A stretch of 64,000 bases of DNA from an uncultured bacterium (GTDB lineage: Bacteria > Desulfobacterota_D > UBA1144 > Nemesobacterales > UBA2774). The stretch spans positions 2,208,001-2,272,000 of the forward strand of contig CAWGRW010000009.1 of the NCBI GenBank assembly GCA_963825135.1, given 5' to 3'. Below the pieces are notes generated by a model. It was given only the letters and a program-made list of their open reading frames with translations. It was not told the DNA's origin and did no database searches. Of the stretch, positions 3,014 to 35,982 are shown one piece after another; the first letter of the stretch is position 1; every line of letters starts with the position of its first letter. Made by a program: the position numbers and the translations under genes.

Positions 3014-3029
3014 GGCAATAAAAGTGCCA
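3014..3029 (-). promoter_or_regulatory. sigma54 -24/-12 promoter for hemY
   Basis: Minus strand TGGCACTTTTATTGCC matches TGGCAC-N5-TTGC, 35 bp before the hemY start. Confidence 0.8.
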
Positions 3030-3078
3030 GTGTATTCTCTATTATTTATCGCGCATCCGGGCGGGGCCGGGTGTAAGG

Positions 3079-3095
3079 TGTCGGAAAGTCTGACA
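3079..3095. promoter_or_regulatory. Palindromic TGTC-N9-GACA site (candidate enhancer-binding-protein site)
   Basis: TGTCGGAAAGTCTGACA lies between two divergent sigma54 promoters. Confidence 0.65.
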
Positions 3096-3224
3096 GAGCG
3101 GGCGGATACGGAATACGGGCAAGAAGCCGTATTTTGCCTTGACTAGCGCGCTGCAGGGGTTCAAATACCCGGAATTCGTTCGGTAATCGCCTTAGGGCGG
3201 AGTTATCGCCTGTCTTTTCCCCTC

Positions 3225-3240
3225 TGGCACAGCGGTTGCA
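3225..3240 (+). promoter_or_regulatory. sigma54 -24/-12 promoter for the radical SAM gene
   Basis: TGGCACAGCGGTTGCA is a consensus match, 36 bp before the ATG at 3277. Confidence 0.85.
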
Positions 3241-3276
3241 ATTCATAAAGAATCAGTCAAATGCCGGTGAGCAGGT

Positions 3277-4407
3277 ATGGGAATAACACAGAAGCCTGAA
3301 AGAGCCGATTTTTCGGTTGCGCCCTTTATTGTGATCTGGGAGGTGACCCGGTCCTGCGACCTCGCGTGCCTCCACTGCAGGGCGGACGCGCGGACCTGCA
3401 GGGACCCTCGCGAGCTCACCACATACCAGGGGCGTAACCTCATAGACGATATAGCGGGGTTCGGATCCCCGCTCCTGGTCCTTACGGGCGGCGACCCGCT
3501 TAAAAGGGACGATATCTACGAGCTCATATCGTACGGCGTGGGGAAGGGGTTACGTACCACGGTGTCTCCGAGCGTGACGCCGCTTCTTACGGACGAGTCC
3601 GTCCGCAGGCTCGGGGATGCGGGCATCTCCAGAATGGCTGTGAGCCTCGACGGCTCCACACCCCTCATACACGATTCGTTCAGGGGCGTTAACGGCAGCT
3701 TCGCCAGGACCCTTGAGGTTCTATCTCTCTGCGCGCTCGAGGGCATACCGATACAGGTCAATACGACCGTAACGAAATACAATATAGGGGATTTCGACAA
3801 CATAGCGGACCTCATAAGCGGGTTCAATCCTGTTCTCTGGAGCGTGTTCTTCCTGGTGCCGACGGGGCGGGGGAAGGCGGTCGAAGGGGTGAGCGCGGAG
3901 GAATATGAGGAGGTCTTCGGGAAGATGTATGAGCTCTCGAAGGTGATGCCTTACGACATCAAGTCCACGGAAGCGCCCCATTACAGGCGCTACGCGGCCC
4001 AGGCAGGGGTCCGGGAATCGAGGGCGGGTAACCGGCCTCAGGCCGCGGGGGAAAGGAAGCGGGACGCCATAGGCAGGGCGCCGAGAGGGATAAACGACGG
4101 GAAGGGCTTCGTCTTCGTTTCCCACACGGGCGAGGTCTATCCGAGCGGGTTCTTGCCCCTGTCCGGCGGGAACGTGAAGAACGAAAGCATCGTGGATGTA
4201 TACGGAAACTCGCCGCTATTCAGGGAGATAAGGGACTACGACAGGCTCAAGGGGAAGTGCGGGGTATGCGAGTTCAAGAACATATGCGGCGGCTCGAGGG
4301 CGAGGTCGTACGCCGTGACCGGGGATTTCATGGAGTCCGAGCCATTTTGCGTGTACGTGCCGGAGAGATACAAGAGGGGCGGCACTCAGGATAATCCGGG
4401 AGTGTGA
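3277..4407 (+). CDS. Radical SAM/SPASM protein, AhbD/NirJ-like (heme biosynthesis related)
   Basis: WEVTRSCDLACLHCRA (CxxxCxxC), LTGGDPL, C-terminal KGKCGVCEFKNICGGSRARSYA. Confidence 0.8.
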   Translation: MGITQKPERADFSVAPFIVIWEVTRSCDLACLHCRADARTCRDPRELTTYQGRNLIDDIAGFGSPLLVLTGGDPLKRDDIYELISYGVGKGLRTTVSPSVTPLLTDESVRRLGDAGISRMAVSLDGSTPLIHDSFRGVNGSFARTLEVLSLCALEGIPIQVNTTVTKYNIGDFDNIADLISGFNPVLWSVFFLVPTGRGKAVEGVSAEEYEEVFGKMYELSKVMPYDIKSTEAPHYRRYAAQAGVRESRAGNRPQAAGERKRDAIGRAPRGINDGKGFVFVSHTGEVYPSGFLPLSGGNVKNESIVDVYGNSPLFREIRDYDRLKGKCGVCEFKNICGGSRARSYAVTGDFMESEPFCVYVPERYKRGGTQDNPGV

Positions 4408-4556
4408 AGTACCGGTTTCTCTCCCGAGCACGCGCTTCCGGTTCGGGTAATCGTATAATTTTAGTGATAAAGGGTTTTTCGCCGGGGCTTTCATTTACCG
4501 GCCCCTATGAATGTGTATAATCATTCAGCAAAAAAATTAAACGCGAGGGACTGAAC

Positions 4557-4979
4557 ATGATCGAGAATATAAAGGTGAAGGAAATAATGACCGCTGAAGT
4601 CCTTTCGGTGCACGATAACGAGAACCTGAGCGTCGTGGCCGGGATATTCAGGGAGAACCCGATACATCATGTCCCGGTCCTCAAGGGCAAAAGGCCCGTG
4701 GGGATAATTTCCACGCAGGACATATTTAAGCTGATATTCGACTTCGACTCGACCGATACCAGAATGCTCGACACCCTCCTCGACCATACCTATAAAATCA
4801 AGGACGTCATGACCGGCAAGCTCGTAATATTCGAGGAGGAATCGACGCTCAAGGACGCGGCGAAGATACTCTCCGACAGCTCGCTCCATTCGATCCTTAT
4901 AGTCGACAAGAAGGGCGATCTGACGGGCATTGTAACCACTACCGACCTCGTCAGGTTCCTCTATAAAAATATCGTATAA
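4557..4979 (+). CDS. CBS domain pair protein
   Basis: VKEIMT...IHHVPV...GIISTQDI and IKDVMT...GIVTTTDL. Confidence 0.9.
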   Translation: MIENIKVKEIMTAEVLSVHDNENLSVVAGIFRENPIHHVPVLKGKRPVGIISTQDIFKLIFDFDSTDTRMLDTLLDHTYKIKDVMTGKLVIFEEESTLKDAAKILSDSSLHSILIVDKKGDLTGIVTTTDLVRFLYKNIV

Positions 4980-5254: not shown

Positions 5255-5464
5255 CTAGAGGATGCCCTGTTTACGCAGGTCCTTTATGACGACGATTACG
5301 TAGATTATTATGGCCATCCCCATGCACGCCCCGCCCACCGACACGGATAATATCATAGTCAGGGGAGTGAATTTGAAGAGCGTCAGGATTATCGTGACGA
5401 GGGCGATCAGGTTGAGCACTCCCGCCGCTATCACGGCCTTTCTTACCCAGGGATGAGTATTCAT
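5255..5464 (-). CDS. Small two-TM membrane protein, last gene of the cytochrome cluster
   Basis: MNTHPWVRKAVIAAGVLNLIALVTII...; ATGA overlap with the upstream NapC-like gene. Confidence 0.7.
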   Translation of the reverse strand: MNTHPWVRKAVIAAGVLNLIALVTIILTLFKFTPLTMILSVSVGGACMGMAIIIYVIVVIKDLRKQGIL

Positions 5465-6099
5465 TGTTCCTTCCATGCCTCCTCGGGGTGGGGTCTCACG
5501 TGGCAGTCCATGCCGAGACACGACATCTTGCTTGAGAGTATGTCTGCCGCGTTCTTTTCGTGCTCCTCCTCTTCCTGAAACGCTATGACGGGGGCGTGGC
5601 AGCGCAGGCATATGGCGTTGTTATAAGTCCCGTAGAGCTTGACGGGGGTCTTGTACCCCGTGTAATAAGCCCATACGTGGCGTATCCCGCCCATCTTCGC
5701 CTTCATGTTGCCGAATATGCCGTAGTCCGAGTGGCATGTGAAACACTGGTCTTCGGAGACCCAGCGGTTCTGGTAGTGCTCTGAGGCGAGATATTCGCTG
5801 TCCGGGTCTTTCAGATCGTTCACGTACCCGTGCATGACGTGACACGAGTTGCAGAACGCGACCTGCTTCGAGTCCTCTATGGCCACGCTGAAGTTGAGGA
5901 GATATGCGATCGGGGAGAGGATGAAGAAGACGATGAGCAGCACCCATTTCCCGAAGGGCTCGGACAGCTTGTTCCTGTCCCGCGCTAAAACGATAATTAT
6001 GAGGACTATGCCGAGGACGCATATCGCAAGCACTATCCATGCGACAAAGGACATCCCCCCCGCGCCTCCCGCTTCCACGCTCTGTTCAAATGGGTTCAT
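5461..6099 (-). CDS. NapC/NirT (CymA-like) membrane-anchored tetraheme cytochrome c
   Basis: Two N-terminal TM helices; FCNSCHVM, CFTCH, CLRCH and atypical CLGMDCH. Confidence 0.85.
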   Translation of the reverse strand: MNPFEQSVEAGGAGGMSFVAWIVLAICVLGIVLIIIVLARDRNKLSEPFGKWVLLIVFFILSPIAYLLNFSVAIEDSKQVAFCNSCHVMHGYVNDLKDPDSEYLASEHYQNRWVSEDQCFTCHSDYGIFGNMKAKMGGIRHVWAYYTGYKTPVKLYGTYNNAICLRCHAPVIAFQEEEEHEKNAADILSSKMSCLGMDCHVRPHPEEAWKEQ

Positions 6100-6118
6100 T
6101 TATCTCTCGCCCGTTCTC

Positions 6119-6598
6119 TTATTGTTCCTTGAGGCAATCCTGAAATCCCGCTTCCTGCTTGTTTCCGTATTTCAGCGACTCCAGCCAGGCGAGCAAGTCC
6201 TGGAATTCGGCGTCGGTGCCCTTGAACTTCTTTCTCTCTTTCTTCTTGGCGAGCTTCTTGCAGTCAGGCGTGTCCTTGAAATAGTCCTTGGGATTTTTAA
6301 TGAAATCGGTCAGCCACTTCGCGTCCCTGTCCGCGCCTATGTTGGAGAGGTCTCCGCCCTTGGACTCCTCCTTGTCTTCCTCGCTCTCCTTGAGCTCGAC
6401 CCCTTTGGATTTCGCGAATGCCACCTTGGCCGCCTCAATCTGGGCCGACTCGGCCTTGACCGTATGGCACGTATAGCACCGCTTCTCTACAAATATAGCT
6501 ATGCCCTTCTGCTGCACGCTCGCGTCCTGGGCGAATGCCGCGGCCGGTATCATGAGCAGGAGCGCTAATACGTATACATATCCGTGAATTTGTACCAT
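6119..6598 (-). CDS. Periplasmic monoheme cytochrome c
   Basis: Signal peptide ending AAAFA, CYTCH, GGDLSNIG. Confidence 0.85.
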   Translation of the reverse strand: MVQIHGYVYVLALLLMIPAAAFAQDASVQQKGIAIFVEKRCYTCHTVKAESAQIEAAKVAFAKSKGVELKESEEDKEESKGGDLSNIGADRDAKWLTDFIKNPKDYFKDTPDCKKLAKKKERKKFKGTDAEFQDLLAWLESLKYGNKQEAGFQDCLKEQ

Positions 6599-7140
6599 GG
6601 TGTGTAAACCCCCTTGTATTTTATAGTTTCGTGACACGTTCCGCACACTTTATTCATGGGCTCTCTCAGATAGACCTCCTTTTCCGGGTCGAGCTTTATT
6701 TCCATGCCCGTCTCTTCCCTGAGCCCGGGAGCGGCGATGATCCTGAGAAAATCCATGCTCCGCTTGTCGAGCTCGGCCCCGTAAACCTTACGGCCCTTTA
6801 TCACGCCCTCCGGGTGCGGGTCGTGGCACGTAAAGCAGGCTATCTTCCCGTTCTCGTCCCCGGGGAGCGGCTTTGCGTCCTTCCCCTCGTGCTCTTTCGA
6901 CCCCGGGTGTATCGTTTCGTCGTGGCACCCGAGGCAGTTCTCGGAAGGGGCGTCCACGAGGAAATACGTCGGGCTCTTCTTCCCCTCCTTCGGGACCTCC
7001 GTATGGCAGTCGAGGCACACGAACTCGTCGTCGACCATCCCGGTATGGGGGTTGTCCTCCTCATCCTTTTTTTCCTGCGAGACGAGGAAGGTGGGGACGA
7101 GCACGATGAGCACGGTTATCAGCATATATCTAATAATCAT
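6565..7140 (-). CDS. Tetraheme c-type cytochrome
   Basis: Signal/TM segment; CLDCH, CLGCH, CFTCHDPH, CGTCH. Confidence 0.88.
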   Translation of the reverse strand: MIIRYMLITVLIVLVPTFLVSQEKKDEEDNPHTGMVDDEFVCLDCHTEVPKEGKKSPTYFLVDAPSENCLGCHDETIHPGSKEHEGKDAKPLPGDENGKIACFTCHDPHPEGVIKGRKVYGAELDKRSMDFLRIIAAPGLREETGMEIKLDPEKEVYLREPMNKVCGTCHETIKYKGVYTPWYKFTDMYTY

Positions 7141-7753
7141 ATCCGCCCTTCGTATGACACGTGTTGCAGAACGTTACCTGGTGGCAGCTCCCGCACTCTC
7201 TCGGGTTGGCGCGCGCCTCGACCCCGTGGATCAACCTGAAATTCCTGTCGTGGACCATTATTGTGGGGAGGTCTCTTCGATTGTGACAATCCTCGCAGAA
7301 CCGGGGCGCGTGGCAATTTTCACACGACTCCTCGTCGGCTTTGGCGAAGACGGCGTGCTTCTCCGTCCAGTTAAAATTGTGATTCTTGGGCTCGATTTCG
7401 GCCATGTTGACATGGCACAGGCTGCACTCTCCCGGCGCAACGTTGCCGGCTTCCGGATTGAAATGACAGAAATGGCACGTCTCCTTTCCGGGGAAGAAGG
7501 ACTGCTTGGACGCCTTGATGGCCTCTTCGATGCTCTTTTCGTCCTTGGCTTCCACGTTCATGGGATGGCAGACGAAGCAGTCGAACCCCTCCTTCTCCAT
7601 CACCTTCTTGTGCGCCTCGTGCGAGAAATTCATGCTTACGTCGAGCGGAACCTTCGGTTTCGCGCCCGAAGCGTTCTCCTCCTTGTTCTGGGCGCCGCAC
7701 CCCGCGAGCGCGAACACCGCCGCCGCTAATATCAATATCGCTCTCTTCATCAC
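7130..7753 (-). CDS. Heptaheme c-type cytochrome lipoprotein
   Basis: Lipobox LAGC; FSHEAH; CFVCH, CHFCH, CSLCH, CENCH, CEDCH, CGSCH, CNTCH. Confidence 0.88.
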   Translation of the reverse strand: MMKRAILILAAAVFALAGCGAQNKEENASGAKPKVPLDVSMNFSHEAHKKVMEKEGFDCFVCHPMNVEAKDEKSIEEAIKASKQSFFPGKETCHFCHFNPEAGNVAPGECSLCHVNMAEIEPKNHNFNWTEKHAVFAKADEESCENCHAPRFCEDCHNRRDLPTIMVHDRNFRLIHGVEARANPRECGSCHQVTFCNTCHTKGGYDY

Positions 7754-9051: not shown

Positions 9052-9059
9052 TTGAAAGA

Positions 9060-9374: not shown

Positions 9375-9396
9375 GTCGTGTTTGTCCTTGCATTTA

Positions 9397-11647: not shown

Positions 11648-11922
11648 AGTACCCTCTCCTTTAAGAACGACTCTTGTTAAACATTAAATAACATGAAATG
11701 GAATGTTTTATAAGAGTTAATTTTAATGACAAGTGTTTATGGGTCTGGCTATACGGCGCATGGAATTTTACTCCGGCCGGTGCGCTTGAATCACTACCCG
11801 GGCTGAATTATTTATCATGACCGGGAAATGAAAATAGCAGGCTTTATTCTCAAAAACGACACGGCCGTTTCCGGCACAAAATCAGAAAGGGGTTAAGTCC
11901 GCATCCGCCCCGTTTTGTACGC

Positions 11923-11939
11923 TGTCAGATAATCGGACG
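11923..11939. promoter_or_regulatory. TGTC-N9-GAC(G) palindrome
   Basis: TGTCAGATAATCGGACG is 15/17 identical to the site upstream of the cco operon. Confidence 0.55.
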
Positions 11940-11991
11940 AAGTCGCCACGGACGAAACTCAGATTATCTCATAATGACAGATGGTTATGTT

Positions 11992-12007
11992 TGGCATGAA
12001 AGTTGTA
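11992..12007 (+). promoter_or_regulatory. Variant sigma54 promoter
   Basis: TGGCATGAAAGTTGTA (GT instead of GC at -12), just before ATG 12023. Confidence 0.45.
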
Positions 12008-12022
12008 CTTATCTTTGATATT

Positions 12023-15228: not shown

Positions 15229-15591
15229 TCAGTGGAGGACTGCTACCGATTGAGTATCAGTATTAAGTTCCGGCATATTCAAGCATCTTTTCTGGCATCT
15301 CACCTTGTCTTTGAATGCGGAACATTTCAGAACGTCATCGTAAGTTCTATATGTAAAAATACTCGGTCGAAACTTCGCTTCCACTGTCATCTTTCTAAAC
15401 GGACAGAAAAACGACTTCATTGCGGACCTATGGGACAAGCTGCGATCTTCTTCTAGTAAGTAAAAAGACACAGCAACTAGCAAAACAAAAGCAAGAATAA
15501 AAGCAAATGGAACAAACAAAAAACTTAGTAGAAATAAAATACTCGCGATGACGCCCGCTATAATTGAAATAACTATATTGAATTTACCCAT
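15229..15591 (-). CDS. Small membrane protein with a Cys-containing C-terminal domain
   Basis: Two N-terminal TM helices, then FFCPF...CSAF...CQKRC; RBS ggggg before ATG 15591. Confidence 0.75.
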   Translation of the reverse strand: MGKFNIVISIIAGVIASILFLLSFLFVPFAFILAFVLLVAVSFYLLEEDRSLSHRSAMKSFFCPFRKMTVEAKFRPSIFTYRTYDDVLKCSAFKDKVRCQKRCLNMPELNTDTQSVAVLH

Positions 15592-15633
15592 GATATTCAC
15601 CCCCTTTCAATGTTATTTCATAGTTATTTGAGT

Positions 15634-15649
15634 TGCATAATTTATGCCA
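15634..15649 (-). promoter_or_regulatory. sigma54 -24/-12 promoter
   Basis: Minus strand TGGCATAAATTATGCA (GG-N10-GC). Confidence 0.65.
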
Positions 15650-15718: not shown

Positions 15719-15735
15719 TGTCTGAACTTCTGACA
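15719..15735. promoter_or_regulatory. TGTC-N9-GACA palindrome
   Basis: TGTCTGAACTTCTGACA, 69 bp upstream of the sigma54 promoter. Confidence 0.6.
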
Positions 15736-15764
15736 CATTCCGATATTTTTAGAATGCGGGAGAT

Positions 15765-15806
15765 TGGCCCCGGAGGTCGCGGGTTCAAGTCCCGTCACTC
15801 ACCCCA
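15765..15806 (+). repeat. att-like copy of the tRNA-His 3' end (copy 2)
   Basis: Matches tRNA 12633-12674 with the same A>G as copy 1. Confidence 0.93.
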
Positions 15807-24180: not shown

Positions 24181-24245
24181 TTTAAAGACCGCGTGAGCCT
24201 GATCGTGCCTGTCTTTCGGACGCTGCTCGGGCACAGGATGTCGTG

Positions 24246-24262
24246 TGTCTTATATTACGACA
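24246..24262. promoter_or_regulatory. TGTC-N9-GACA palindrome
   Basis: TGTCTTATATTACGACA, upstream of the sigma54 promoter at 24437. Confidence 0.55.
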
Positions 24263-24436: not shown

Positions 24437-24452
24437 TGGTATGCTCCTTGCA
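24437..24452 (+). promoter_or_regulatory. sigma54 -24/-12 promoter
   Basis: TGGTATGCTCCTTGCA (GG-N10-GC) just before the GNAT gene. Confidence 0.65.
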
Positions 24453-24467: not shown

Positions 24468-25052
24468 ATGAAAGTGTATCCAAAAGAGTTTTTGCTCAAA
24501 GATAAGAGCATGGTTATTATCAGGCCGCTAGTTGAGGAGGACTGGGAATTCGTTCAGACGTTTTTTTCAAAAATACCCAGGGAGGACCTCATCATTTATA
24601 AAGACGACGTAACGAAGTGGGAATCGCTCGAAAACTGGTTCGTGAACCCGAATTACGAGAAGGTGGTCGAGCTCGTGTCCTTTTGCAAGAAAGAAGTCGT
24701 CGCGAAAGGCACGCTCCACGCTCAGGGGCTTTACTGGCCCCACGCCGCCGAGGTGAAGCTGGTGGTCCATCCGGAGTACAGGGGCAATGGCCTCGGTTCC
24801 CAGATGTTCAGCCTGCTTCTCTATGAAGGGCTCAAACACCAATTCCAGAAGATTATCGTGAGGTACATCCCGGACAACCTGAGCTTCGTGAAGATTCTCG
24901 GCCATTACGGGTTTGAGCCGGAAACCGTACTTAACTATTATGTGCTGGACGAGGCTACGAATGAGCAGAAGGACCTCGTGATCGCTTCCTACGACCTGCA
25001 GAACTGGGAGCGCAGGTTCGAGTTTTACAGCTACGTTTATGGCGGTAACTAA
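24468..25052 (+). CDS. GNAT N-acetyltransferase
   Basis: VVHPEYRGNGLGSQM acetyl-CoA motif; N-terminal LKDKSMVIIRPL. Confidence 0.85.
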   Translation: MKVYPKEFLLKDKSMVIIRPLVEEDWEFVQTFFSKIPREDLIIYKDDVTKWESLENWFVNPNYEKVVELVSFCKKEVVAKGTLHAQGLYWPHAAEVKLVVHPEYRGNGLGSQMFSLLLYEGLKHQFQKIIVRYIPDNLSFVKILGHYGFEPETVLNYYVLDEATNEQKDLVIASYDLQNWERRFEFYSYVYGGN

Positions 25053-25156: not shown

Positions 25157-26704
25157 ATGAATGATCTGAAAAAAACAAAAAAAGAGCTTGCTGCGGAATT
25201 GGAAGTGCTCCGGAAAAAGATCAAATCATATGAAAGTCAGGACGGCGGGGAGAGCGCATTATTCGGGAACAATTACAGCTTCATAGTCGAATCCGTACCT
25301 AGCGGGATAGTCATGACGGACGATACAGGGAAGATTATTTTCGTGAATTCCCTCGTAAATGCGACGCTCGGATACGGGGACGGGGAGCTTCTCGGAAAAA
25401 GTATCGAGATTCTCGTCCCGGAACGCTACCGCAGGGCGCATCCCGTATTCAGAGATACATTCATGATGTCGCCGATCTCAAGACCGATGGGGAAAGGGCG
25501 TGATCTTTTCGCCCTGAAGAAGGACGGTTCCGAGCTCCCGGTAGAGATAGGCCTCAATCCCGTGAAGACTAAAAACGGGTTCGTGGTGCTCAGCACCCTT
25601 ATCGATATCACGGAGAGGAAATTAGCCGAGAGGATGCTGCGGGAAGGGGAAGAGAGACTCCGCGGGATAATGGAAAATACGTCCGACGCCGTGCTGCTCT
25701 TTGACGGCGACGGCCGGATCGAATCTGTAAACAGGGCGGGGCTTGTACTTTTTACCGGCAGCGAAAACGGGGAAATCGGGAACATTCGGGAAATAATCAC
25801 GCCTGAACAAAGGGAGAGCTTCACGGCGAAGCTGAGAAACGCGAAAGAGGGTGTTTCGGTTACGGACTTCGAGACGGAATTGATGAGGAAAGACGGCAGG
25901 AGAGTCCCAGTGAGCATCAGCCTCGTTTATATGAACCACGGCGGCGGGAGGTTCATTGAGACGGTGAGGGACATTTCCGCAAGAGTAGCGATGAGAAAGA
26001 AAATAATAGAGCTCGAGAAATCCCAGATAGTGGGGAGGATGGCTGAAGGTTTCGCCCATCACATGGGTACTCCGCTCGCATCCATGCTGCTCAGGGTACA
26101 GATGCTCAAAGAAGACGTATCGGATATAACGGGATATGAGGGGATTCTGGAGAAACTGGATTCGATTGAAAGACAGATCCTCTACGGCCAGAAAGTGATA
26201 CAGAGGCTTCTCAAGTTTGTCGGCAACCCCATAAGCGAAAAGAGTCCCGAGGACGCGGCGTCCATTCTGATCGAGTCGGTAGACCTTATCAGGCCTCTTC
26301 TCAAAAAGAAAATCATAGACGTGCTCGTGGAAACGGAAGATAATTTAACGATACTCACCGACACGAACTTGCTCCACCTCGTGTTCACCGATACCATAAT
26401 GAACGCAGTCGACGCAATGCCCGGAGGCGGATCACTCACCTTGACAGCATCGGGCGATAAAGTGCCGGGCTTAGCAGTAATAACGATAAACGATACCGGG
26501 GACGGTATCCCCAAAGAGATTATTCCTTACGTGTTCGAGCCCTTTTTTACGACGAAGCCTGCCGGAATGGGCACGGGGCTCGGCCTCTCCGTCGCAAAAC
26601 GTATCATAAGCGACCACGGCGGCGAGATTTCCTTAAAGAGCAAGGAGGGGGAGGGCACCACCGTTACTATCAAACTTCCAATATTTTCCAAGGAGCAGCA
26701 ATAG
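25157..26704 (+). CDS. Cytoplasmic PAS-PAS histidine kinase (first PAS FixL-like)
   Basis: PAS LVPERYRRAH...RPMGKGRDLFALKKDG; H-box FAHHMGTPL; NAVDAM, DTGDGI, FEPFFTTK, GTGLGL. Confidence 0.92.
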   Translation: MNDLKKTKKELAAELEVLRKKIKSYESQDGGESALFGNNYSFIVESVPSGIVMTDDTGKIIFVNSLVNATLGYGDGELLGKSIEILVPERYRRAHPVFRDTFMMSPISRPMGKGRDLFALKKDGSELPVEIGLNPVKTKNGFVVLSTLIDITERKLAERMLREGEERLRGIMENTSDAVLLFDGDGRIESVNRAGLVLFTGSENGEIGNIREIITPEQRESFTAKLRNAKEGVSVTDFETELMRKDGRRVPVSISLVYMNHGGGRFIETVRDISARVAMRKKIIELEKSQIVGRMAEGFAHHMGTPLASMLLRVQMLKEDVSDITGYEGILEKLDSIERQILYGQKVIQRLLKFVGNPISEKSPEDAASILIESVDLIRPLLKKKIIDVLVETEDNLTILTDTNLLHLVFTDTIMNAVDAMPGGGSLTLTASGDKVPGLAVITINDTGDGIPKEIIPYVFEPFFTTKPAGMGTGLGLSVAKRIISDHGGEISLKSKEGEGTTVTIKLPIFSKEQQ

Positions 26705-28060
26705 TGAGCCCTGAAAAATTCAAAGTGCTTGTTGTTGATGACGATAAGGAGTTTATCGAGGCGGTCAAAGAGCTCCTCGAACGTAATAGCTATCAGGTGC
26801 TAACCGCGTATTCGGGGAAAGAGGCGCTCGAAAAAGCGGCCGAGGAGGACGGGCTCAGGCTCGTGCTGCTCGATCTCGTGATGCCGCTTATGGATGGTTT
26901 CACTCTCCTCGAGAAACTCATGGACCTGATACCGGGGTTGACTGTGATTATGGTTACGGGTCAGGGAACCGTGCAGACGGCGGTCGAGGCAATCAAACGG
27001 GGGGCTAAAGACTTTATATCGAAGCCCTTCGATAAAGACGTTCTCCTTAACAAACTCGAAGTGATAAGAAAAGCGGAAGAGCTTGAGAATAAAGTCAGCA
27101 CCCTGAATGTGCTCCTTTCTGAAAAATACGGCTTCGACAATATCATAAGCGGCTCCAAGCTGATGAAAACGGTTTTCGAGAGGGCTTCCGCGGCCGCCCA
27201 CAGCAATGCGCCCGTATTCATTGTGGGCGAGACGGGTACGGGAAAAGAGCTCCTGGCCAAGGCCATACACCTGAGCGGCGAGAGGGCGGGCAAACCCTTC
27301 GTCGGTGTTAACTGCGGGGCTATACCCAAAGACCTTCTCGAATCCGAGCTCTTCGGATACCGGAAAGGGTGCCTTCACCGGGGCAGTGAGGGACCATGAG
27401 GGCCTGTTTGTCGCGGCGGAGAAGGGGACGATATTTCTCGATGAAATAGGGGAGATGCCTAAAGAGCTCCAGGTGAGATTGCTTCGGGTGCTCGAAGAAT
27501 ATAAAGTGCGTCCTATCGGGCATACGCAGGAGATATCGCTCGACGTAAGGGTTATATCCGCAAGCAACCACAGCATAGAGGATCTCAAGAAGACTTACCT
27601 GAGGGAGGATCTCTTCTTCAGACTCGCCGTTATAGTGATAGAGCTCCCTCCGTTGAGGGACAGAAAGGGGGATATCCCTCTCCTCATTGACCACTTCGTA
27701 AGCAGATTCAGTAATAAGTACTCGAAGAAGGTTAAAGGTCTCTCCGAAGGGGCGTTCAGCTCACTCTACAACTACGACTTCCCCGGTAACATCAGGGAGC
27801 TCGAAAATCTGATAGAGGGTATCATTGCCGTGATACCATCCGGCAAGAACACCATTACGGAAAAAGAGCTTAAGGAACATCTGCTCTGGCAGCAGCCCAA
27901 GAGCTCCGAGCACCAGATCCTCGCCCTCGACAGGCTCGAGAAATTCGCGCTCGAGCAGGCGCTAAGGGAATGCAAGGGGAACAAATCGAAGGCCGCCGAT
28001 ATACTCGGCATCTCGAGGGACACGCTTTACAGGAAGCTTAAACAATACGAGGTTGAATAG
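26704..28060 (+). CDS. NtrC-family sigma54-dependent response regulator, +1 frameshift at ~27365
   Basis: Receiver VDDD/DLVMP, Walker [23 protein letters not shown] spanning the shift, [15 protein letters not shown], Fis-type HTH. Confidence 0.9.
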
Positions 28061-28155: not shown

Positions 28156-28932
28156 TCAAATCCGGAAGGTGTGATTATCTTGCTTCGAATATGTATCCGC
28201 CGGCGCAGGGTCACTGTCGACAGCCGAGCATACAGCATTACCATGAACCGTTCCCCGGAGCGGTATCACATGGATTGCGAAATTGGCGAGCCCGACCAGT
28301 ATCAAAATAATCCCCGCTATGATGCTCAGTTTCCTGGGCGCTAAACCGATTGATCTCTTGTAGAAAAAGGGGAGGAAGGACAACGCCGGCACCGTCCCGA
28401 GCCAGAAGATTAAAAGCACCGCGCCCCCGTACAAAGGATTCTTCGTCGCGACCGAGCCGATCACGAATATGTAGACCCATCCGCATGGTATGAACCCGTT
28501 GACGAGACCGAGCGTGAGCGCAGCAAGGGGTTTCTTCTGGGTGAGAGACCATCGGGCCGGAATTGTCAGCAGGGAAGTGACGAGCCTGTCGGGTATGAGC
28601 TCAAGACGCCTGCCTCTCACGAGGTTGAGGCCCGCATATATGAGGAATAGAGACAGGAGGATTAGTGAGGCCCTCGAAATAAGCGGGTAGTTATTGCTCA
28701 GGAATTTTTCTCCCAGCAGTCCCGCCAATACCCCGAGTGAGAGGTAGCTTGCCAGCCTGCCCAGATGGTAGAGCGGGAGGTACCCGATCCTGCTGTGCAC
28801 GGTTATCGCGATAGGGCCGCACATGGCGGCGCAGTGCGAGCTGCCGACCAGGCTCGCGATAAACACCCCGACGGGCACGGACAGGTACGACCAGCGGCCT
28901 ATTATCTCGCTAAATTGACTTAGGTCCGACAA
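28156..28932 (-). CDS. cbb3 biogenesis DsbD_2/TauE-like membrane protein
   Basis: SHCAAMCGPI, YHLGR, NGFIPCGWVY, FWLGTVP; last gene of the cco operon. Confidence 0.85.
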   Translation of the reverse strand: MSDLSQFSEIIGRWSYLSVPVGVFIASLVGSSHCAAMCGPIAITVHSRIGYLPLYHLGRLASYLSLGVLAGLLGEKFLSNNYPLISRASLILLSLFLIYAGLNLVRGRRLELIPDRLVTSLLTIPARWSLTQKKPLAALTLGLVNGFIPCGWVYIFVIGSVATKNPLYGGAVLLIFWLGTVPALSFLPFFYKRSIGLAPRKLSIIAGIILILVGLANFAIHVIPLRGTVHGNAVCSAVDSDPAPADTYSKQDNHTFRI

Positions 28933-30337
28933 GCTGTATGTCCTCCTCCGCTTCTATCTTATTGTTCTTCTCATCTATGAAACTAAGCTTAACCGATTCC
29001 GTCCCGCTGCTCCCGGTTACGGTCTGAGGGAACTTGACGAAGAAATGAACGGTCAGGTCCTTCCCAGCTCCGAGATCGTATGATTCGCTCTGGGAGATGA
29101 TCTCGATTTTCTTCTCCTTTAATTCCTCGGGGATTATCATCTTTAGCCGGATATCGTCGAACGACTGATTCTTCATGTGCATTTTGAAATGGTTTATTAT
29201 CACTTCGCTCCCGTCCCCGTTCTTTATGATCTGAAACGGCGTGTCTTTTCCGCGAAGGATCGTAACGACTATTTCTTCTCTCCTCTGAACTGAAAATATC
29301 AACGCGCTGACGACGGCTACGAGCAGAACTACGTATATCGCGACCCTGGGCCGAAGCCATCTTGTCTTGAGTCCCTTGAGAGTCCTCCCGGTAGCGTATC
29401 TTATGAGCCCCTTTGGTTTTTCTATCTTCTCCATGACCTCGTCGCATGCGTCTATGCACGCCGTGCACCCTATGCACTCAAGCTGGAGGCCGTTCCTTAT
29501 GTCTATGCCGGTGGGGCATACGGCGACACACTTGTAGCAGCTGATGCAGTCGCCCTCGGTCTGGCCCGGCTTTACGCTCCCCTTCCTCGGCTCGCCCCTC
29601 ACGGAGTCGTACGAAACCGTGAGCGAGTCGTCGTCGAGAAGCACCGACTGGAACCTGCCGTAAGGGCATACTATTATGCAGAACTGTTCCCTGAACCACC
29701 CGAAGTCGAACAGGAACACGGCGGTAAGAAAGGCCATGATGACGAATATTGTCCAGTTCTCTCCCGGGTTGTGCCGGGTCATCTCGACGAGCCTGTCCGC
29801 ACCCACGAAATAAGCGAGAAAACTGTGGGCGATCACGAGGCTTGCTATTGTAAAAAGGGTCCAGAGGACTGAGAGCTTCAGAAATTTTCTCACGTCCCAC
29901 GGGGCCTGTGCGAGGTTCCGCTGCTGAACGTGGCTCCCGATAATCAGGTATTCGAGCCTTCTGAAGATGCCGTCTATGAACACCGTCTGCGGGCACCCCC
30001 ATCCGCACCATATCCTTCCCCATACCGCGGTCACGAACGCGAGCCCTATCGTGAGGAAAGCCAGTATAAAGAAAATCAGCGGCGCGTCGTGCGCCCAGAA
30101 GGTAAGACCGAAAATGGAGAATTTCCTCTCTCCGATATTGAGTAGCAGCGCCTGGTGTCCCCCTATCTTTATCCACGGGAGCACGAGGAAGAAGATGACG
30201 AGGAATATCTCCGTGACCGTCCTCAATTTCCGCCATAGGCCCGAAACCTGCGCCGGGAATATGAAGACCCTCTTTCCTTTTTCATCCATGGTCGCCGGAC
30301 GCTCGTCCGGGAGGTGTCTCTGATCTAGTACTTTCAT
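28910..30337 (-). CDS. ccoG: cbb3 oxidase accessory ferredoxin-like protein CcoG
   Basis: GRIWCGWGCPQTV, REQFCIIVCPYGRFQ, CISCYKCVAVCPTGIDIR, CIGCTACIDAC. Confidence 0.95.
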   Translation of the reverse strand: MKVLDQRHLPDERPATMDEKGKRVFIFPAQVSGLWRKLRTVTEIFLVIFFLVLPWIKIGGHQALLLNIGERKFSIFGLTFWAHDAPLIFFILAFLTIGLAFVTAVWGRIWCGWGCPQTVFIDGIFRRLEYLIIGSHVQQRNLAQAPWDVRKFLKLSVLWTLFTIASLVIAHSFLAYFVGADRLVEMTRHNPGENWTIFVIMAFLTAVFLFDFGWFREQFCIIVCPYGRFQSVLLDDDSLTVSYDSVRGEPRKGSVKPGQTEGDCISCYKCVAVCPTGIDIRNGLQLECIGCTACIDACDEVMEKIEKPKGLIRYATGRTLKGLKTRWLRPRVAIYVVLLVAVVSALIFSVQRREEIVVTILRGKDTPFQIIKNGDGSEVIINHFKMHMKNQSFDDIRLKMIIPEELKEKKIEIISQSESYDLGAGKDLTVHFFVKFPQTVTGSSGTESVKLSFIDEKNNKIEAEEDIQLVGPKSI

Positions 30338-30903
30338 CTTCGCTCTATCATCTGTCCCTGCGGCGCTTTAGCTCCGGGCGGGTTCGTGCCGTGAATGCTG
30401 TAAACGTATGCCGCTACGTCTTCCTCCAGGTCGGCCGGTATAACCCCTTTCCACTGGGGCATCCCCTTGTCCGGTACCCCTGAGTTCATTACTGTAAGTA
30501 TAGCAGGAATAGACCCGTCGCCGTGTATCCAGTAGTCGTCCGTGAGGTTGGGGCCTATAATCCCCTGCCCCTTGTCTCCGTGGCACGGCAGACACTTGGT
30601 CAGGAACTCGGCTTTGCCCCTCGCTATCGCTTCCGGATTCGATACAAGCGCGAGATAATCTGCCTGGGTCTTCATTTCTCCGGTCTCTTCGGTCTTTTGC
30701 TGTACCGTTTTGATGGAGCTCATCTCCGACGACAGTTCCTGGTCGAGAGTCGGGCCTCCGAACAGCTGATAGTACGCGAAATAAATGACGGCGAATATCA
30801 CGGTGATGTAAAAAGTCATGAGCCACCATCCGGGGAGCGGGTTGTTCAGCTCCTGTATTCCGTCATAATCGTGGTCCTCTATCAGTTTTTCTTTATCAGG
30901 CAT
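30334..30903 (-). CDS. ccoP: cbb3 oxidase subunit III (monoheme CcoP)
   Basis: DHDYDGIQELNNPLPGWW, CLPCH, GPNLTDDYWIHG, KGMPQW. Confidence 0.92.
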   Translation of the reverse strand: MPDKEKLIEDHDYDGIQELNNPLPGWWLMTFYITVIFAVIYFAYYQLFGGPTLDQELSSEMSSIKTVQQKTEETGEMKTQADYLALVSNPEAIARGKAEFLTKCLPCHGDKGQGIIGPNLTDDYWIHGDGSIPAILTVMNSGVPDKGMPQWKGVIPADLEEDVAAYVYSIHGTNPPGAKAPQGQMIERR

Positions 30904-31087
30904 GGTTGTCCTCCTTTGATCTGAATCTCTCATCCTCGAGGGGAAGGCGCTCCATCTCCTCGATCTCGGCCTTCGGTTTCTTAAGCGCCCAGAGTACTAT
31001 CATTACAAAGGCCGAGAGGAACAGGACGAGGGCTATGATGATAATCTCTATGTCCGTAAAATATGAAAGTGCTATCTGGTTGATGAC
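30896..31087 (-). CDS. ccoQ: CcoQ-like small subunit (no canonical start codon at expected position)
   Basis: VINQIALSYFTDIEIIIIALVLFLSAFVMIVLWALKKPKAEIEEMERLPLEDE...; lies between ccoNO and ccoP. Confidence 0.7.
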   Translation of the reverse strand, partial: VINQIALSYFTDIEIIIIALVLFLSAFVMIVLWALKKPKAEIEEMERLPLEDERFRSKEDNHA

Positions 31088-33234
31088 GTGACCCCCTGCT
31101 GGGTTGTCTTCTTACCCAGACTCTGGAGATATGCGATAATCGCTATGACTTCCGAGTCCTTGACGGACGTGAGTGAGGGGTCCTGGGAAACGAGGCCCTC
31201 GTAGATGGTTTCCGCCTGCTTCTCCGCGTTTATGTCGGCGTTTGAGACCTCCTCCCCCGTATACGGCACGCCGAGCATCTTCATGACGCTTAGCTTCTTT
31301 CTAAGAATGTTGTAATCGATCTTGTTCGAAGCAAGCCACGGGTATGACGGCATGATTGACCTGGGCGTGATTTCACGGGGGTTTATCATGTGACGGAGGT
31401 GCCACATGTCGGGGTATTTACCGCCGACCCTCGCGAGGTCCGGGCCGGTCCTTTTGGATCCCCACTGGAACGGGTGGTCGTACATGGATTCTTCGAGCGT
31501 GGAGCTGGGTCCGAACCTGAGCACGTCGAAAGGAAGCTTCCTTATCATCTGCGAATGACATACGTAGCAGCCTTCCTTGATATATATGTCCCTGCCCGCG
31601 AGCTCGAGAGAGGTGTACGGCTCTGTCTTGGCCGTTTGAGGAAGATATTTGTAGATCGCGAGCGTGGGAATGATTTCGATTATCGAGCCTGCCAGCACGG
31701 CTATCAGAAGCAGTACCGTGAAGATCGCCGATAGGGCTTCTAGTTTTCTATGACCTGTGCCGATCGGGGTAACTTCCGCTGAGCGCGCCGGCACCTCTAC
31801 CGCCATTGCCTTCTCTCCCTTCGGCGCTCTCGCGATAGTTGTCCATACGTTGTAGATGAGAAGGATGAACCCGGTCAGGAACAGGACCCCGCCCGCGAAC
31901 CTCACGTAATAGAGGGGCTGGATCCTGATCACGGTTTCGACGAAGTCAGGATAAACGAGCTGGCCGTTTTCCCCGATGGCCCTCCACATGAGGCCCTGCG
32001 TTATACCGCTTGCCCACATGGAAATATAATAGAGAAGTATGCCGAGAAAACCGATCCAGAAGTGCCAGTTCATGAGCCTCTGGCTGTACATCTTGGTATT
32101 CCAGAGTCTCGGCACGAGATAGTAAATAATCCCGAACGTGAGGAACCCGTTCCACCCGAGCGTCCCGCCGTGCACGTGGCCGATAATCCAGTCCGTATAG
32201 TGCGCGAGGGAGCTCACCGATTTAATGGACAGCAGCGGACCTTCGAACGTCGACATTCCGTAGAACGTTATGGCCACTGCGAGGAACTTGATTATGGGGT
32301 CCGTGCGCAGCTTGGTCCACGCGCCCCTCAGTGTGAGGAGTCCGTTAATCATGCCGCCCCAGCTCGGCGCCCAGAGCATTATGCTGAATATCATCCCGAG
32401 CGTCTGCGCCCAATCGGGGAGAGCGGTATTGAGGAGATGGTGAGGGCCTGCCCATATGTAGATGAATACGAGGGACCAGAAATGGACGATAGAAAGCCTG
32501 TAGCTGTATATTGGCCTGTTCGCCGCTTTGGGTACGTAGTAGTACATGAGCCCCAGGAACGGAGTCGTCAGGAAGAATGCGACAGCGTTATGGCCGTACC
32601 ACCACTGGACGAGAGCGTCCTGCACCCCTGCGTAGACCGGATAGCTCTTGAACATCGCTACCGGGATCTCTATCGAGTTCACGACGTGGAGGAGCGTCAC
32701 AGTCACTATCGTCGCGATGTAAAACCATATCGCCACGTAGAGGTGACGGACTCTCCTTATCGCTATGGTGCCGAAGAAATTGACCGCGAATACGACCCAG
32801 ACGACGGCTATGGCGATGTCGAGGGGCCACTCGAGCTCCGCGTACTCCTTCCCGTGTGAATACCCGAGCGGGAGCGTAATCAGGGCGCCCACTATGATCA
32901 GCTGCCATCCCCAGAAATGAAAGTTGCTGAGGACGTCGGAGAAGTTCCTCGTCTTCAGGAGCCGCTGCGTCGAATGATATATGCCCGCAAAAATAATGTT
33001 ACCGCCGAACGCGAATATTGCGGCGTTCGTATGGAGCGGCCTGATCCTGCCGAACGTGAGCCACGGGAGCTCCAGGTTCGCAGGCCAGTACGCGAGCTCA
33101 AGCGCCGCAAGCAATCCGACTATGAATGCCGCGGCCCCCCAGAATATCGTCGCGTAAATAAATTTCTTGACGATGTCGTCGTCGTAATAAATCTTTTCAG
33201 TAATAGCGGTGTTACCCGCTCTGGCGTCGCTCAT
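31072..33234 (-). CDS. ccoN: Fused cbb3 oxidase subunits I and II (CcoN-CcoO)
   Basis: RIRPLHTNA, QWWYGHNAV, WAGPHH, HVHGG; CcoO part EGCYVCHSQMIR, WGSKRTGPDLAR. Confidence 0.96.
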   Translation of the reverse strand: MSDARAGNTAITEKIYYDDDIVKKFIYATIFWGAAAFIVGLLAALELAYWPANLELPWLTFGRIRPLHTNAAIFAFGGNIIFAGIYHSTQRLLKTRNFSDVLSNFHFWGWQLIIVGALITLPLGYSHGKEYAELEWPLDIAIAVVWVVFAVNFFGTIAIRRVRHLYVAIWFYIATIVTVTLLHVVNSIEIPVAMFKSYPVYAGVQDALVQWWYGHNAVAFFLTTPFLGLMYYYVPKAANRPIYSYRLSIVHFWSLVFIYIWAGPHHLLNTALPDWAQTLGMIFSIMLWAPSWGGMINGLLTLRGAWTKLRTDPIIKFLAVAITFYGMSTFEGPLLSIKSVSSLAHYTDWIIGHVHGGTLGWNGFLTFGIIYYLVPRLWNTKMYSQRLMNWHFWIGFLGILLYYISMWASGITQGLMWRAIGENGQLVYPDFVETVIRIQPLYYVRFAGGVLFLTGFILLIYNVWTTIARAPKGEKAMAVEVPARSAEVTPIGTGHRKLEALSAIFTVLLLIAVLAGSIIEIIPTLAIYKYLPQTAKTEPYTSLELAGRDIYIKEGCYVCHSQMIRKLPFDVLRFGPSSTLEESMYDHPFQWGSKRTGPDLARVGGKYPDMWHLRHMINPREITPRSIMPSYPWLASNKIDYNILRKKLSVMKMLGVPYTGEEVSNADINAEKQAETIYEGLVSQDPSLTSVKDSEVIAIIAYLQSLGKKTTQQGVTSSTR

Positions 33235-33416
33235 TTGCCCGTTTCCTCCTTAACGTGTTGGTTCTTTTTATCGGTTTCGTAGTCGTCGAGTAGCATCCTG
33301 TGTCCCGGGGTATCGAGGTCGTCGTACTGGCCTTTTCCCGCGGCCCATATGAAAGCCGCAAGGAAAACGAGCGCGATTGCGATTGAGACGCCCAGAGTGA
33401 GGAATATAATATTCAT
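33231..33416 (-). CDS. ccoS: cbb3 assembly protein CcoS
   Basis: TM helix then FIWAAGKGQYDDLDTPGHRMLLDD. Confidence 0.93.
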   Translation of the reverse strand: MNIIFLTLGVSIAIALVFLAAFIWAAGKGQYDDLDTPGHRMLLDDYETDKKNQHVKEETGK

Positions 33417-35866
33417 GCCCGCGCTCCTCCCTCACGGGTCCTCGTCTTGTTCCGGCCGTAAAGCGAGGAGGCTATGAGCAGCACCGAGCTCAACGGCATC
33501 AGCACTGCGGCCGCAAGCGGATTGATAAATCCCATGAGGGCGAATGCCCCGGCCGTGACGTTGTAAGTAATGGAGAAGGCCGTATTCCTCCTTACCGTTT
33601 CCCGTATAACCCTTCCGTGGTCTAACAGGTCGAGAATCGTGAACAAATCGTTCTCGAGTATATAGGCGTCTGAGACCTTCATGCTCTCCCCGACGCTTCC
33701 CTGAATTGCCACCCCTACTTCGGAAGACGAGAGCGCTCCCGCGTCATTGAGCCCGTCCCCGATCATCATCGACCCGCCGCACGCCCGGACGATCTCCGAT
33801 TTCCGCTCGGGCGTCACTTCCGAGTACACGTTATCCATGGGTATTTGAAGCTTTCGGGCGACCTGTCTGACGTTCGATTCCTTGTCGCCTGACAGGATAT
33901 AGAGCGAGTAGCCTCTCCTTTTAAGCTCCGTCACTACGAACTTCGCGTCTTCTTTGAGTGAATCCCCGAGGAGGATTTCGGATAGGGGTACCCCGTCCTT
34001 CCGGATGACGATCCTCGTCGCTATGATTTCGTTGATCTCATTCGGCCTGGATAGGTCGCTCTCCGCCGTCAGCGAATAGAGGTGCCCCCCGGCCCTGCCT
34101 TCGACGCCTTTGGAATAGAGGTGCCTGAAGCCGCTCACTTCGGGAATATCGAGTTCTTCGCCCGAGAGATAAGCGACCACGGCCCTCGCAACCGGGTGCT
34201 CCGATTCACGCTCGATGGCGAGCACTGCGGCGCGGTCGGTTGCGGGAAGCTTATCCGTATCCCAGCTGAGTATCCTGTATACGCCGTTCGTGAGCGTCCC
34301 CGTCTTGTCGAAGAATATGTTCTTTACACGCGGGAGCTTGTCGAAAATCTTGGCGTCCTTTATCAGTATCCCATTGTCCGAGGCGGATTTGAGGAAGAGG
34401 CCGAACGACAGGGGCAGAACGAATACGAATGCGCAGGGGCATGAAATAAGTATGAACGCTATAGTCCTATCGAGTGCTTCGGAAGCGCCGTAGTATGAGG
34501 AAACCGTGAAAAAGGAAACCGCCGCTATAATGCCGACCGCGAAAGTGAATGCGGTCGCGTATCTGTCACTGTAGGTGGAGAGGCCGATTTTACTCCTGTA
34601 GTTATTCTCCACTTCCTCGAGTATCTTTCCGATCCTGGTCGAGTTTCCGGTCTCCGTAATCTCTAGAAGCGCCTCGTCCGAATCGAGTATGGAGCCCGCG
34701 TAAACGATCTCTCCCCTCGATACGGTCCTGGGTATGTTCTCTCCAGTGAGCACGGACAGGTTGACCTCGGCAATCTGAGAGAGCAATCTGCCGTCGGCGG
34801 GGAAACGGCCGCCTCGGGCGAGCTTGATTTTCTGTCCCGCCCGGAGGGATTCCACGGGCTGATAAAAGTACTGTTTCGCGCTATCGTCTCTGACGAGGAC
34901 GCGGTTCGCTGAAAAGAGGCTCTTTCCGAGGGGTTCCCTGTCGTCAAGCCGTCCCTGGACTGTCCTCAGGAAATACCTGCTCGCGAGGAGAAGGAAAACG
35001 AACATGCTTATCGAGTCGAAATAAACTTCCGGGTTGCCGCTAAAGTAGTTATACACGCTTATGAAGAACCCTGCGAATATTACGAATACTATGGGGATGT
35101 CGACGGTCGCCCGTCCCGTCCTGACGGAGCCGAGCACGCTCTTGTAAAAGGGCAGGGAGCAGTACGTTATGACGGGGAGGGAAAGTATAAGGTTCAGGAG
35201 CATGAACTGCTCCTCGAACACACCGCGCGCGCCGGAATATATGGCCGCCGAGAGGAGCATGATGTTCCCCGCGCATACGGCGGCGATCGATAGTCTTATG
35301 AGAGACTTCCTGTTCTCGCTCTTCTTATGACCGCTCGCGTCTTCGTTTTTCTTAAGCGGGTGCGCTCTGTACCCGAATTTCTTTGCCGCTTCCGGAAATG
35401 ACGAGAATTTTTTTTCAGGTGTGAAATTGACCGTCGCAGTGTTGTCCGACATGTTGAGCGAAAGGGATTCGATCCCGGGTACGAAATCCGGTATTTTTTC
35501 AATAAGCCAGAGGCATGCGGCGCATTCGATCCCCTCCACATAAAAATTCATCGTCAGGGGCTTCTCTTCCTTAACATATAAGTCGGTGAAACTCTCGCTG
35601 TCGAGGTATCCGTAGTCTTCCCCTGAGGCTGGGTCTGCCGGGGGGGTTGTTTTAAGTATGTTCTGGGATTCCCTGATACTGTAGTAGTCGTCCAGGCCGA
35701 GCGCGCCGAGAAGCTCATACACCGACCTGCATCCGTTGCAGCAGAACATTTTGCCGTTCGATGCTACGATATTTGACGGGTTTACGGCTTCGCCGCAGTG
35801 GAGGCACCGACCATATTGCAACAGTTCTCCGGAAATGTTCTCTCTCGGTACTATCGTATTCGTCAT
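33413..35866 (-). CDS. ccoI: Cu-translocating P1B ATPase CcoI/FixI
   Basis: CLHC, FCCNGC, CAAC, SCPCA, DKTGTLT, SEHP, GDGLND; start placed at ATG 35866, downstream of the sigma54 promoter. Confidence 0.92.
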   Translation of the reverse strand: MTNTIVPRENISGELLQYGRCLHCGEAVNPSNIVASNGKMFCCNGCRSVYELLGALGLDDYYSIRESQNILKTTPPADPASGEDYGYLDSESFTDLYVKEEKPLTMNFYVEGIECAACLWLIEKIPDFVPGIESLSLNMSDNTATVNFTPEKKFSSFPEAAKKFGYRAHPLKKNEDASGHKKSENRKSLIRLSIAAVCAGNIMLLSAAIYSGARGVFEEQFMLLNLILSLPVITYCSLPFYKSVLGSVRTGRATVDIPIVFVIFAGFFISVYNYFSGNPEVYFDSISMFVFLLLASRYFLRTVQGRLDDREPLGKSLFSANRVLVRDDSAKQYFYQPVESLRAGQKIKLARGGRFPADGRLLSQIAEVNLSVLTGENIPRTVSRGEIVYAGSILDSDEALLEITETGNSTRIGKILEEVENNYRSKIGLSTYSDRYATAFTFAVGIIAAVSFFTVSSYYGASEALDRTIAFILISCPCAFVFVLPLSFGLFLKSASDNGILIKDAKIFDKLPRVKNIFFDKTGTLTNGVYRILSWDTDKLPATDRAAVLAIERESEHPVARAVVAYLSGEELDIPEVSGFRHLYSKGVEGRAGGHLYSLTAESDLSRPNEINEIIATRIVIRKDGVPLSEILLGDSLKEDAKFVVTELKRRGYSLYILSGDKESNVRQVARKLQIPMDNVYSEVTPERKSEIVRACGGSMMIGDGLNDAGALSSSEVGVAIQGSVGESMKVSDAYILENDLFTILDLLDHGRVIRETVRRNTAFSITYNVTAGAFALMGFINPLAAAVLMPLSSVLLIASSLYGRNKTRTREGGARA

Positions 35867-35901
35867 CACGGTATTTGTTACTCTTTGACAGTTCTTTACG
35901 G

Positions 35902-35916
35902 GCAATAACTATGCCA
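35902..35916 (-). promoter_or_regulatory. sigma54 -24/-12 promoter of the cco operon
   Basis: Minus strand TGGCATAGTTATTGC, 35 bp before ATG 35866. Confidence 0.8.
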
Positions 35917-35965
35917 TTGCAAATATTAATGAATACGATATTTCACGCCTGCATCCGGTGTCGAT

Positions 35966-35982
35966 TGTCAGATAATAGGACA
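35966..35982. promoter_or_regulatory. TGTC-N9-GACA palindrome
   Basis: TGTCAGATAATAGGACA, 49 bp from the promoter (same gap as at hemY). Confidence 0.65.

Follow-up and report, generated by a model that had tools for sequence, protein, structure and literature searches.

A candidate sigma-54 low-oxygen regulon in an uncultured bacterium, marked by a TGTC-N9-GACA palindrome and a FixL-like kinase

In a 64,000-nucleotide stretch of DNA from an uncultured bacterium of the Dadabacteria (assembly GCA_963825135.1, contig CAWGRW010000009.1, positions 2,208,001 to 2,272,000; the window), the palindrome TGTC-N9-GACA stands upstream of the sigma-54-type -24/-12 promoter sequences of a cbb3 oxidase (cco) operon, a haem-synthesis gene and an operon encoding a histidine kinase with an NtrC-class sigma-54 activator. 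We propose that the palindrome is the enhancer of this activator (26704..28060, + strand) and that the FixL-like kinase switches the activator at low oxygen, the whole forming a sigma-54 low-oxygen regulon; we put the probability of this reading at about 0.7. In the proposed circuit, falling oxygen would yield a deoxy-haem kinase that phosphorylates the activator, and the phosphorylated activator would assemble on the enhancer and open sigma-54 promoters. The genes switched on would serve to scavenge oxygen, supply haem, respire N2O and make dormancy-type stress proteins, and the activator would also amplify its own operon by positive autoregulation.

Exactly four perfect palindromes occur in the window (at 3079, 15719, 24246 and 35966), each upstream of a -24/-12 match, with the palindrome at 3079 serving two promoters. 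The gaps, i.e. the base pairs (bp) between palindrome and -24/-12 match, are 49 for hemY, 129 for a radical SAM gene, 69 for the promoter at 15634, 174 for the regulator operon and 49 for cco. A previous reading of this DNA (the original prediction) had named these palindromes, a one-mismatch copy at 11923, GG-N10-GC promoters at the five genes or operons just listed and a variant promoter at 11992; all are present in the sequence, the variant reading GG-N10-GT, and both the shared 49-bp gap at hemY and ccoI and the 15/17 identity of the sites at 11923 and 35966 are as it described. One-mismatch palindromes, of which the window holds 24, are uninformative on their own. The cco operon (28156..35905, - strand) comprises ccoI for a P-type ATPase, a fused ccoNO, ccoP, ccoG and a DsbD-like gene, behind a promoter sequence at 35901..35916 (-) and an enhancer at 35959..35982, in which the palindrome (35966-35982) is joined by an extra half-site facing the promoter (35959-35962). 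The enhancer at 3072..3095 (no strand; palindrome 3079-3095, extra half-site 3072-3075 facing hemY) is shared by the promoter sequences of hemY (3014..3029, -) and the radical SAM operon (3225..3240, +), both perfect consensus matches and the latter conserved. The regulator operon has its enhancer at 24239..24262 (no strand; palindrome 24246-24262, far-side half-site 24239-24242) and its promoter sequence at 24437..24452 (+), followed by a GNAT acetyltransferase gene, the kinase gene (25157..26704, +) and the activator gene, which lies in two frames in this assembly, a split that the original prediction did not mention.

Could this arrangement be a chance co-occurrence in AT-rich intergenic DNA? 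The original prediction expected the motif to exceed the genome background, and by bare count it does not: the 3.13-Mb, 94% complete host genome (labelled G000 in our comparisons, with relatives as G0xx and loci as Lxxx) holds 43 copies, within the range of 11-56 seen for spacers of 0-25, which is what chance would give. The count alone thus carries no information, and the signal lies in position relative to a promoter. An exact N9 site precedes 8 of the 82 strong promoter matches (at most one mismatch) in the whole genome, whereas spacers of 4 to 15 other than N9 give 0 or 1 of 82 apiece and a downstream control gives none; outside the window, the figure is 5 of 79. A site matrix trained on other genomes only (53 distinct cores; consensus TGTCNKAWWWTMNGACA) places the six promoters of the window among the nine best of 351 candidates, and 18 of the 351, 12 of them outside the window, score at least 12, against none downstream and a mean of 0.57 (maximum 4) for 100 column-shuffled matrices. 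The reversed motif-promoter pattern was found in none of 107 Dadabacteria genomes, and spacers of 10-14 give 13 matches in 11 of 41 genomes, nine of the matches being one orthologous N12 site. These spacer, downstream, reversed-pattern and shuffle controls, together with the conservation described below, refute chance, to which we assign a negligible probability. An IHF site falls between enhancer and promoter in 21 of 89 cases (shuffled mean 12.6, maximum 19), a weak test. Two other spacings deserve mention in their own right. Another sigma-54 promoter (G000:C9:631220-631314, with orthologues in eight genus members) is preceded by a conserved element, TGTC-N12-GACA-TTTTTGC, that some different activator probably reads, and G030 (L176-L185; C2:409958 and C2:544502), which lacks the N9 system, has two TGTC-N10-GACA sites of GlrR-like spacing before sigma-54 promoters.

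The motif is also conserved upstream of orthologues, as the original prediction required. At ccoI, both site and promoter are kept in all 17 relatives with upstream sequence (3 of 20 loci are cut), the site being exact in 14 and the gap 49-51 in 15. In one comparison, all 12 relatives whose upstream sequence was available keep the regulator-operon site; a properly spaced site was not found in G014, nor an exact one in L078 and L084. Upstream of the nos operon, whose gene nosZ occurs in 38 genomes, the site is found in all 18 genomes that bear the regulator, out of 20 examined; the nos locus of G027, which has no regulator, shows neither site nor promoter, and that of G033, whose regulator is broken, gives weak scores. 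The hemY copies that lie beside the radical SAM gene carry site and promoter in 9 of 10 cases (scores of 8.5-23.8, some of them modest; the miss is G033), as against 0 of 20 copies elsewhere, and the gaps of 49 and 129-131 bp from the shared enhancer are kept in relatives.

Which activator reads the site? The host genome has rpoN alongside 12 sigma-54 activators, so that eleven besides the one at 26704 might bind the element, with the 26704 operon as merely one more target; the frameshift in the 26704 gene and a relative, G036, that has sites without it (both taken up below) would suit such an arrangement. The distribution of the 26704 activator speaks against this. Among the 107 Dadabacteria genomes, all at least 85% complete, the motif-promoter pattern occurs in 41 and the C-terminal region of the 26704-28060 regulator in 39; 38 have both, 65 have neither and four are discordant. 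Of the four, G005 has a regulator fragment at a contig edge, the sole match in G056 lies inside an open reading frame (ORF) and was treated as chance, and G033 has a split regulator, no kinase orthologue that we could find and no motif, leaving G036. In G033 (L238:3394-4125, L042:4838-6198) we also observed a Crp/Fnr gene close to nos, and control may have passed to it. Most negatives come from three small-genome families, and the informative ones are thus G026, G027 and G030, which have rpoN and 9-10 activators each. A FastTree phylogeny of 86 activators contains three clades common to all four motif-positive test genomes; two of these are also present in G026, G027 and G030, and only the 26704 clade is absent from them. 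The palindrome moreover accompanies a homologue of the 26704 activator in another phylum, and we regard a different reader as improbable. Among the homologues listed, the recognition helix G[IV]SRDTL[YH]RK is found in 120 of 120 and GAFTGA in 104 of 120; the regulator is whole in relatives, with 451 residues, and an intact one (L002) has the receiver Asp, Walker A and B, GAFTGA and the Fis helix-turn-helix. The proposal that this one activator serves haem synthesis, the cbb3 oxidase and its own operon is thus supported by co-occurrence, tree and conservation, and from sequence we consider it very probable that the element is its binding site.

Alternatively, the palindrome might be bound by a Crp/Fnr-family protein or some other sigma-70 regulator: CooA-type boxes differ by one spacer base, and relatives have a Crp/Fnr gene within the hemY/radical SAM island. 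No Crp/Fnr protein exceeds the cut-off in the host genome, however, and such proteins do so in only 15 of the 107 genomes and 14 of the 41 motif-positive ones, the other 27 having no match. In 9 of 10 loci examined, the Crp/Fnr gene follows the radical SAM gene, which marks it as a second-tier target and not the binder, and at all 13 promoters compared the sites differ from FNR, CRP and CooA boxes at 2-4 positions; binding of this kind is very improbable. In the window itself, the Crp/Fnr-family gene that relatives have at this position (L293-L302, with a Cys-x2-Cys N-terminus) is missing from 4407-4557.

The association extends beyond the Dadabacteria. In 52 distant loci, mostly of Acidobacteriota and some of them near-identical, the regulator is ~49% identical with the same recognition helix. 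Around these loci we count 35 exact N9 palindromes, compared with 4-13 when the spacer is of another length, and the matrix gives 59 matches in 40 of the 52 (shuffle mean 1.2), often directly 3' of the regulator gene and beside cytochrome bc, multihaem and porin genes. A separate observation concerns the Acidobacteriota kinases (L090:8669-9982, L110, L121 and others), in which the haem PAS gives way to a short N-terminal segment that is hydrophobic and conserved and has a seemingly invariant HYLYI[TS]RG stretch; their genes have cytochrome bc, multihaem and MtrB/PioB porin genes as neighbours, and they are possibly an undescribed type of membrane redox sensor.

The element itself usually has a third half-site, TGTC-N9-GACA-N3-(G/T)ACA, and is then a polar 24-mer. 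Across 124 distinct site-promoter pairs, among which orthologues are not independent, the third half-site points toward the promoter in 52 of 56 pairs with gaps of 45-52 and away in none, away in 9 of 12 with gaps of 53-60 and away in 31 of 35 beyond 80. Gaps cluster at 49-50, 59-60, 70-72 and 80 for forward sites and at 53-56, 64-66, 75-76 and 85-87 for reversed ones, and over 25 classes the resultant of a 10.5-bp period is 0.57 when measured from the centre of the 24-mer compared with 0.09 from that of the palindrome, a choice of centre that was made post hoc. The extra half-site would fix the helical face for assembly of the activator. Acidobacteriota sites lack the extension (1 and 2 of 59), and some of them stand in tandem at 18 bp.

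What, then, does the kinase sense? It has two PAS domains and no hydrophobic or membrane segment. Among proteins of solved structure, the best sequence matches of PAS 1 are haem PAS domains (FG214 at 1e-15, FixL at 4e-11 and DosP at 3e-8), and all listed structural matches of its predicted fold (pLDDT 88) down to rank 30 are haem PAS domains as well. His95 is present in 25 of 25 aligned orthologues and Arg115 in 24 of 25 (the 25 chosen from 45 partly redundant matches), and their 20-residue spacing is the same as in the FixL and DosP alignments. By analogy with FixL, we take His95 to be the proximal haem ligand and Arg115 the distal residue that senses O2. We consider haem and O2 the likely signal. 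Elsewhere in the host genome, L039 (G000:C9:2105916-2108588) has a second His-bearing FixL-like PAS, with Leu at the Arg position, carried by an activator-like protein without a clear helix-turn-helix.

The target genes bear on the same question. Those of the shared enhancer are a second hemY/hemG of the protoporphyrinogen/coproporphyrinogen oxidase family (1479..2978, -; TIGR00562, 290 bits against a cut-off of 98) and a gene for an AhbD-like TIGR04053 radical SAM/SPASM protein (3277..4407, +; 461 bits against 395), which is followed by a CBS protein gene (4557-4979). Elsewhere in the host genome, site and promoter precede CBS and USP operons (C9:2650079 and C10:91056), HSP20-USP genes (C9:2644642), a di-haem peroxidase operon (C9:2743915), phaC-hpf (C9:2148541), a second TIGR04053 gene with a weaker site (C9:2205495) and the nos operon (C9:2665581; gap 49, -12 element TTTCA), whose NosZ is of clade II (870 bits against 625 for the Sec-dependent model TIGR04246; 460 for the TAT model). 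Relatives add nrfHA, FtsH, PHB depolymerase-like and outer-membrane genes, and G040 has a further haem-copper oxidase, together with SCO1, behind the regulator. The predicted trio of haem synthesis, cbb3 oxidase and own locus is thus supported, and the predicted regulon is wider, taking in N2O reductase and hypoxia-stress genes. Such content is typical of FNR/FixK-type low-oxygen regulons, and from it we infer activation at low rather than high O2. PMC5582078 and PMC6446978 partly back this picture of a low-oxygen regulon.

Several observations weigh against the proposed circuit. The co-occurrence is less impressive than its totals, as 58 of the 65 genomes with neither activator nor motif belong to the three small-genome families and add little, and kin are not independent. 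G036, which is 93% complete, has at least five sites, and orthologues of activator, kinase and GNAT were not found in it; its two congeners have the activator, and our guess is an assembly gap or a recent loss of the regulator. The activator gene of the host has one extra base near 27367-27370 relative to four relatives and one related contig; two other window genes appear similarly split, frame splits occur in 3 of 30 compared loci (a crude test), and the frameshift is likely an assembly error. If it is real, the switch of this strain was recently broken with its sites intact. In several nos promoters, the -12 element departs from the canonical GC. At Acidobacteriota sites, only 11 of 59 have a promoter scoring at least 9 on the Dadabacteria matrix (background 3.3%), and the strict motif-promoter pattern was found in none of five Acidobacteriota genomes. 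Finally, PAS folds are all similar (494 structure matches at E<=0.001), and the H-box reads AHHMGTP, the residue that follows the phospho-His being His instead of Glu/Asp in every row read; the acidic residue usual at this position is needed for autokinase activity.

This last point raises the alternative of the same activator and regulon with a kinase that senses NO, CO, haem supply or redox, or that acts mainly as a phosphatase. Haem-synthesis genes and nos among the targets would suit it, as would the Acidobacteriota partner kinases, which are membrane-anchored and lack the haem PAS, and Vibrio FlrB reportedly binds haem as its signal (bioRxiv 10.1101/2023.06.29.547052). Set against it are the FixL- and DosP-like His/Arg spacing and a target list (cbb3, the second oxidase in G040, peroxidase, USP, CBS and NrfHA) that fits low-oxygen regulons, and we consider it unlikely, preferring oxygen as the signal.

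The remaining window sites precede genes of less obvious function. A one-mismatch enhancer with its extra half-site on the far side (11916..11939, no strand; matrix score 18.0) lies 52 bp from the variant promoter (11992..12007, +), downstream of which is a small PF18780 repeat protein (ORF 11981-12418, +; probable start at 12024); the orthologous locus in G036 (L041) has an exact palindrome and a canonical promoter at a gap of 53. A palindrome without extra half-site (15719..15735, no strand) and a promoter sequence with two mismatches (15634..15649, -) precede a small membrane protein without a family match (15229..15600, -). The regulator operon opens with the GNAT acetyltransferase gene (24468..25052, +; PF00583), which also lies 5' of the kinase in relatives; a look-up in a protein cluster atlas returned generic GNAT clusters only. 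Other features of the window include a multihaem cytochrome cluster (NapC/NrfH-like and MtrC-like; 5461-11549, -) divergent from the 11923 site, a stand-alone cNMP-binding ORF (12798-13148), a tRNA-His (12597-12674) and, near 15757-15800, a tRNA-like 3' fragment seen by eye and not called by ARAGORN. An OmcA/MtrC-type decahaem gene (9397-11549) and a ThiO-like oxidase gene (37485-38743) each appear in two ORFs, which suggests indel errors or decay.

If the proposed circuit holds, it does the job that FNR does in other bacteria, and a phylum known solely through metagenomes gains concrete candidates for the regulator, the operator and the signal behind its microaerobic respiration and its reduction of N2O. 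nosZ mostly co-occurs with the activator (36 of the 38 nosZ-bearing genomes among the 107), and the circuit would thus predict the conditions under which these inhabitants of soil, sediment and groundwater consume N2O. In Acidobacteriota, the operator helps to annotate a respiratory regulon, and for enhancer geometry the link between orientation and distance provides a data set made by nature. We give even odds to the fuller picture, in which a FixL-type sensor and a sigma-54 activator replace FNR/FixK in Dadabacteria, clade II N2O reductase is under oxygen and not nitrogen-oxide control, the helical face is determined by a polar three-half-site enhancer, and Acidobacteriota control their respiratory chains with the same helix-operator pair behind a different, membrane-bound sensor.

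How does this system compare with known ones? We found no description of it or of the TGTC-N9-GACA motif in the literature searched (subscription papers, supplements and RegPrecise-type databases lay outside the search), and the regulator falls below every named activator model among those listed. NtrY is membrane-anchored and NtrX lacks GAFTGA, whereas the kinase here is soluble and the regulator keeps GAFTGA and scores 309 bits against 600 for the NtrX model. The likeness to NtrYX (PMC9409073) is a haem-binding kinase with an NtrC-family regulator affecting cbb3 and denitrification genes; FlrBC is a similarly loose parallel. The FNR regulon of Ca. Accumulibacter likewise has one predicted motif before nos and cbb3 in an uncultured organism, but it uses an FNR box and a Crp/Fnr regulator (PMC6446978), neither of which is seen here. 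Enterobacterial GlrR (QseF) is also a sigma-54 activator with TGTC...GACA half-sites; it has a spacer of 10, three sites and the target glmY (PMC3045617), as opposed to the spacer of 9 here, and TGTC-N10-GACA precedes 1 of the 82 strong promoters and the GlrR model gives 346 bits against 763. The two closest known systems are FixLJ-FixK2 and NmpRSTU. FixLJ-FixK2 of Bradyrhizobium (PMC5582078) shares a haem-PAS kinase, low-oxygen control that reaches nos and, in some of our relatives, a downstream Crp/Fnr gene. There, FixL acts through FixJ on FixK2, and a -24/-12 element was not found at nosR in that study; here, the kinase (158 bits on NCBIfam FixL NF041777, cut-off 850) is partnered not by FixJ but by a sigma-54 AAA+ activator that would control the respiratory operons directly. 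NmpRSTU of Myxococcus xanthus (PMC11841059) also combines an NtrC-like activator, sigma-54 promoters and haem-based sensing with targets that include a cbb3 operon with a P-type ATPase, a haem enzyme and its own sensor operon. It senses through a protoglobin kinase within a phosphorelay, in place of which we see a FixL-type PAS kinase (protoglobin PF11563 was not found in the 94% complete host genome), and its operator is a tandem GCGCA-N5-TGCGC, which has 3-4 mismatches at 13 of 13 promoters here. Here the site is instead a single polar TGTC-N9-GACA element, and the predicted targets, unlike those of NmpRSTU, include nos.

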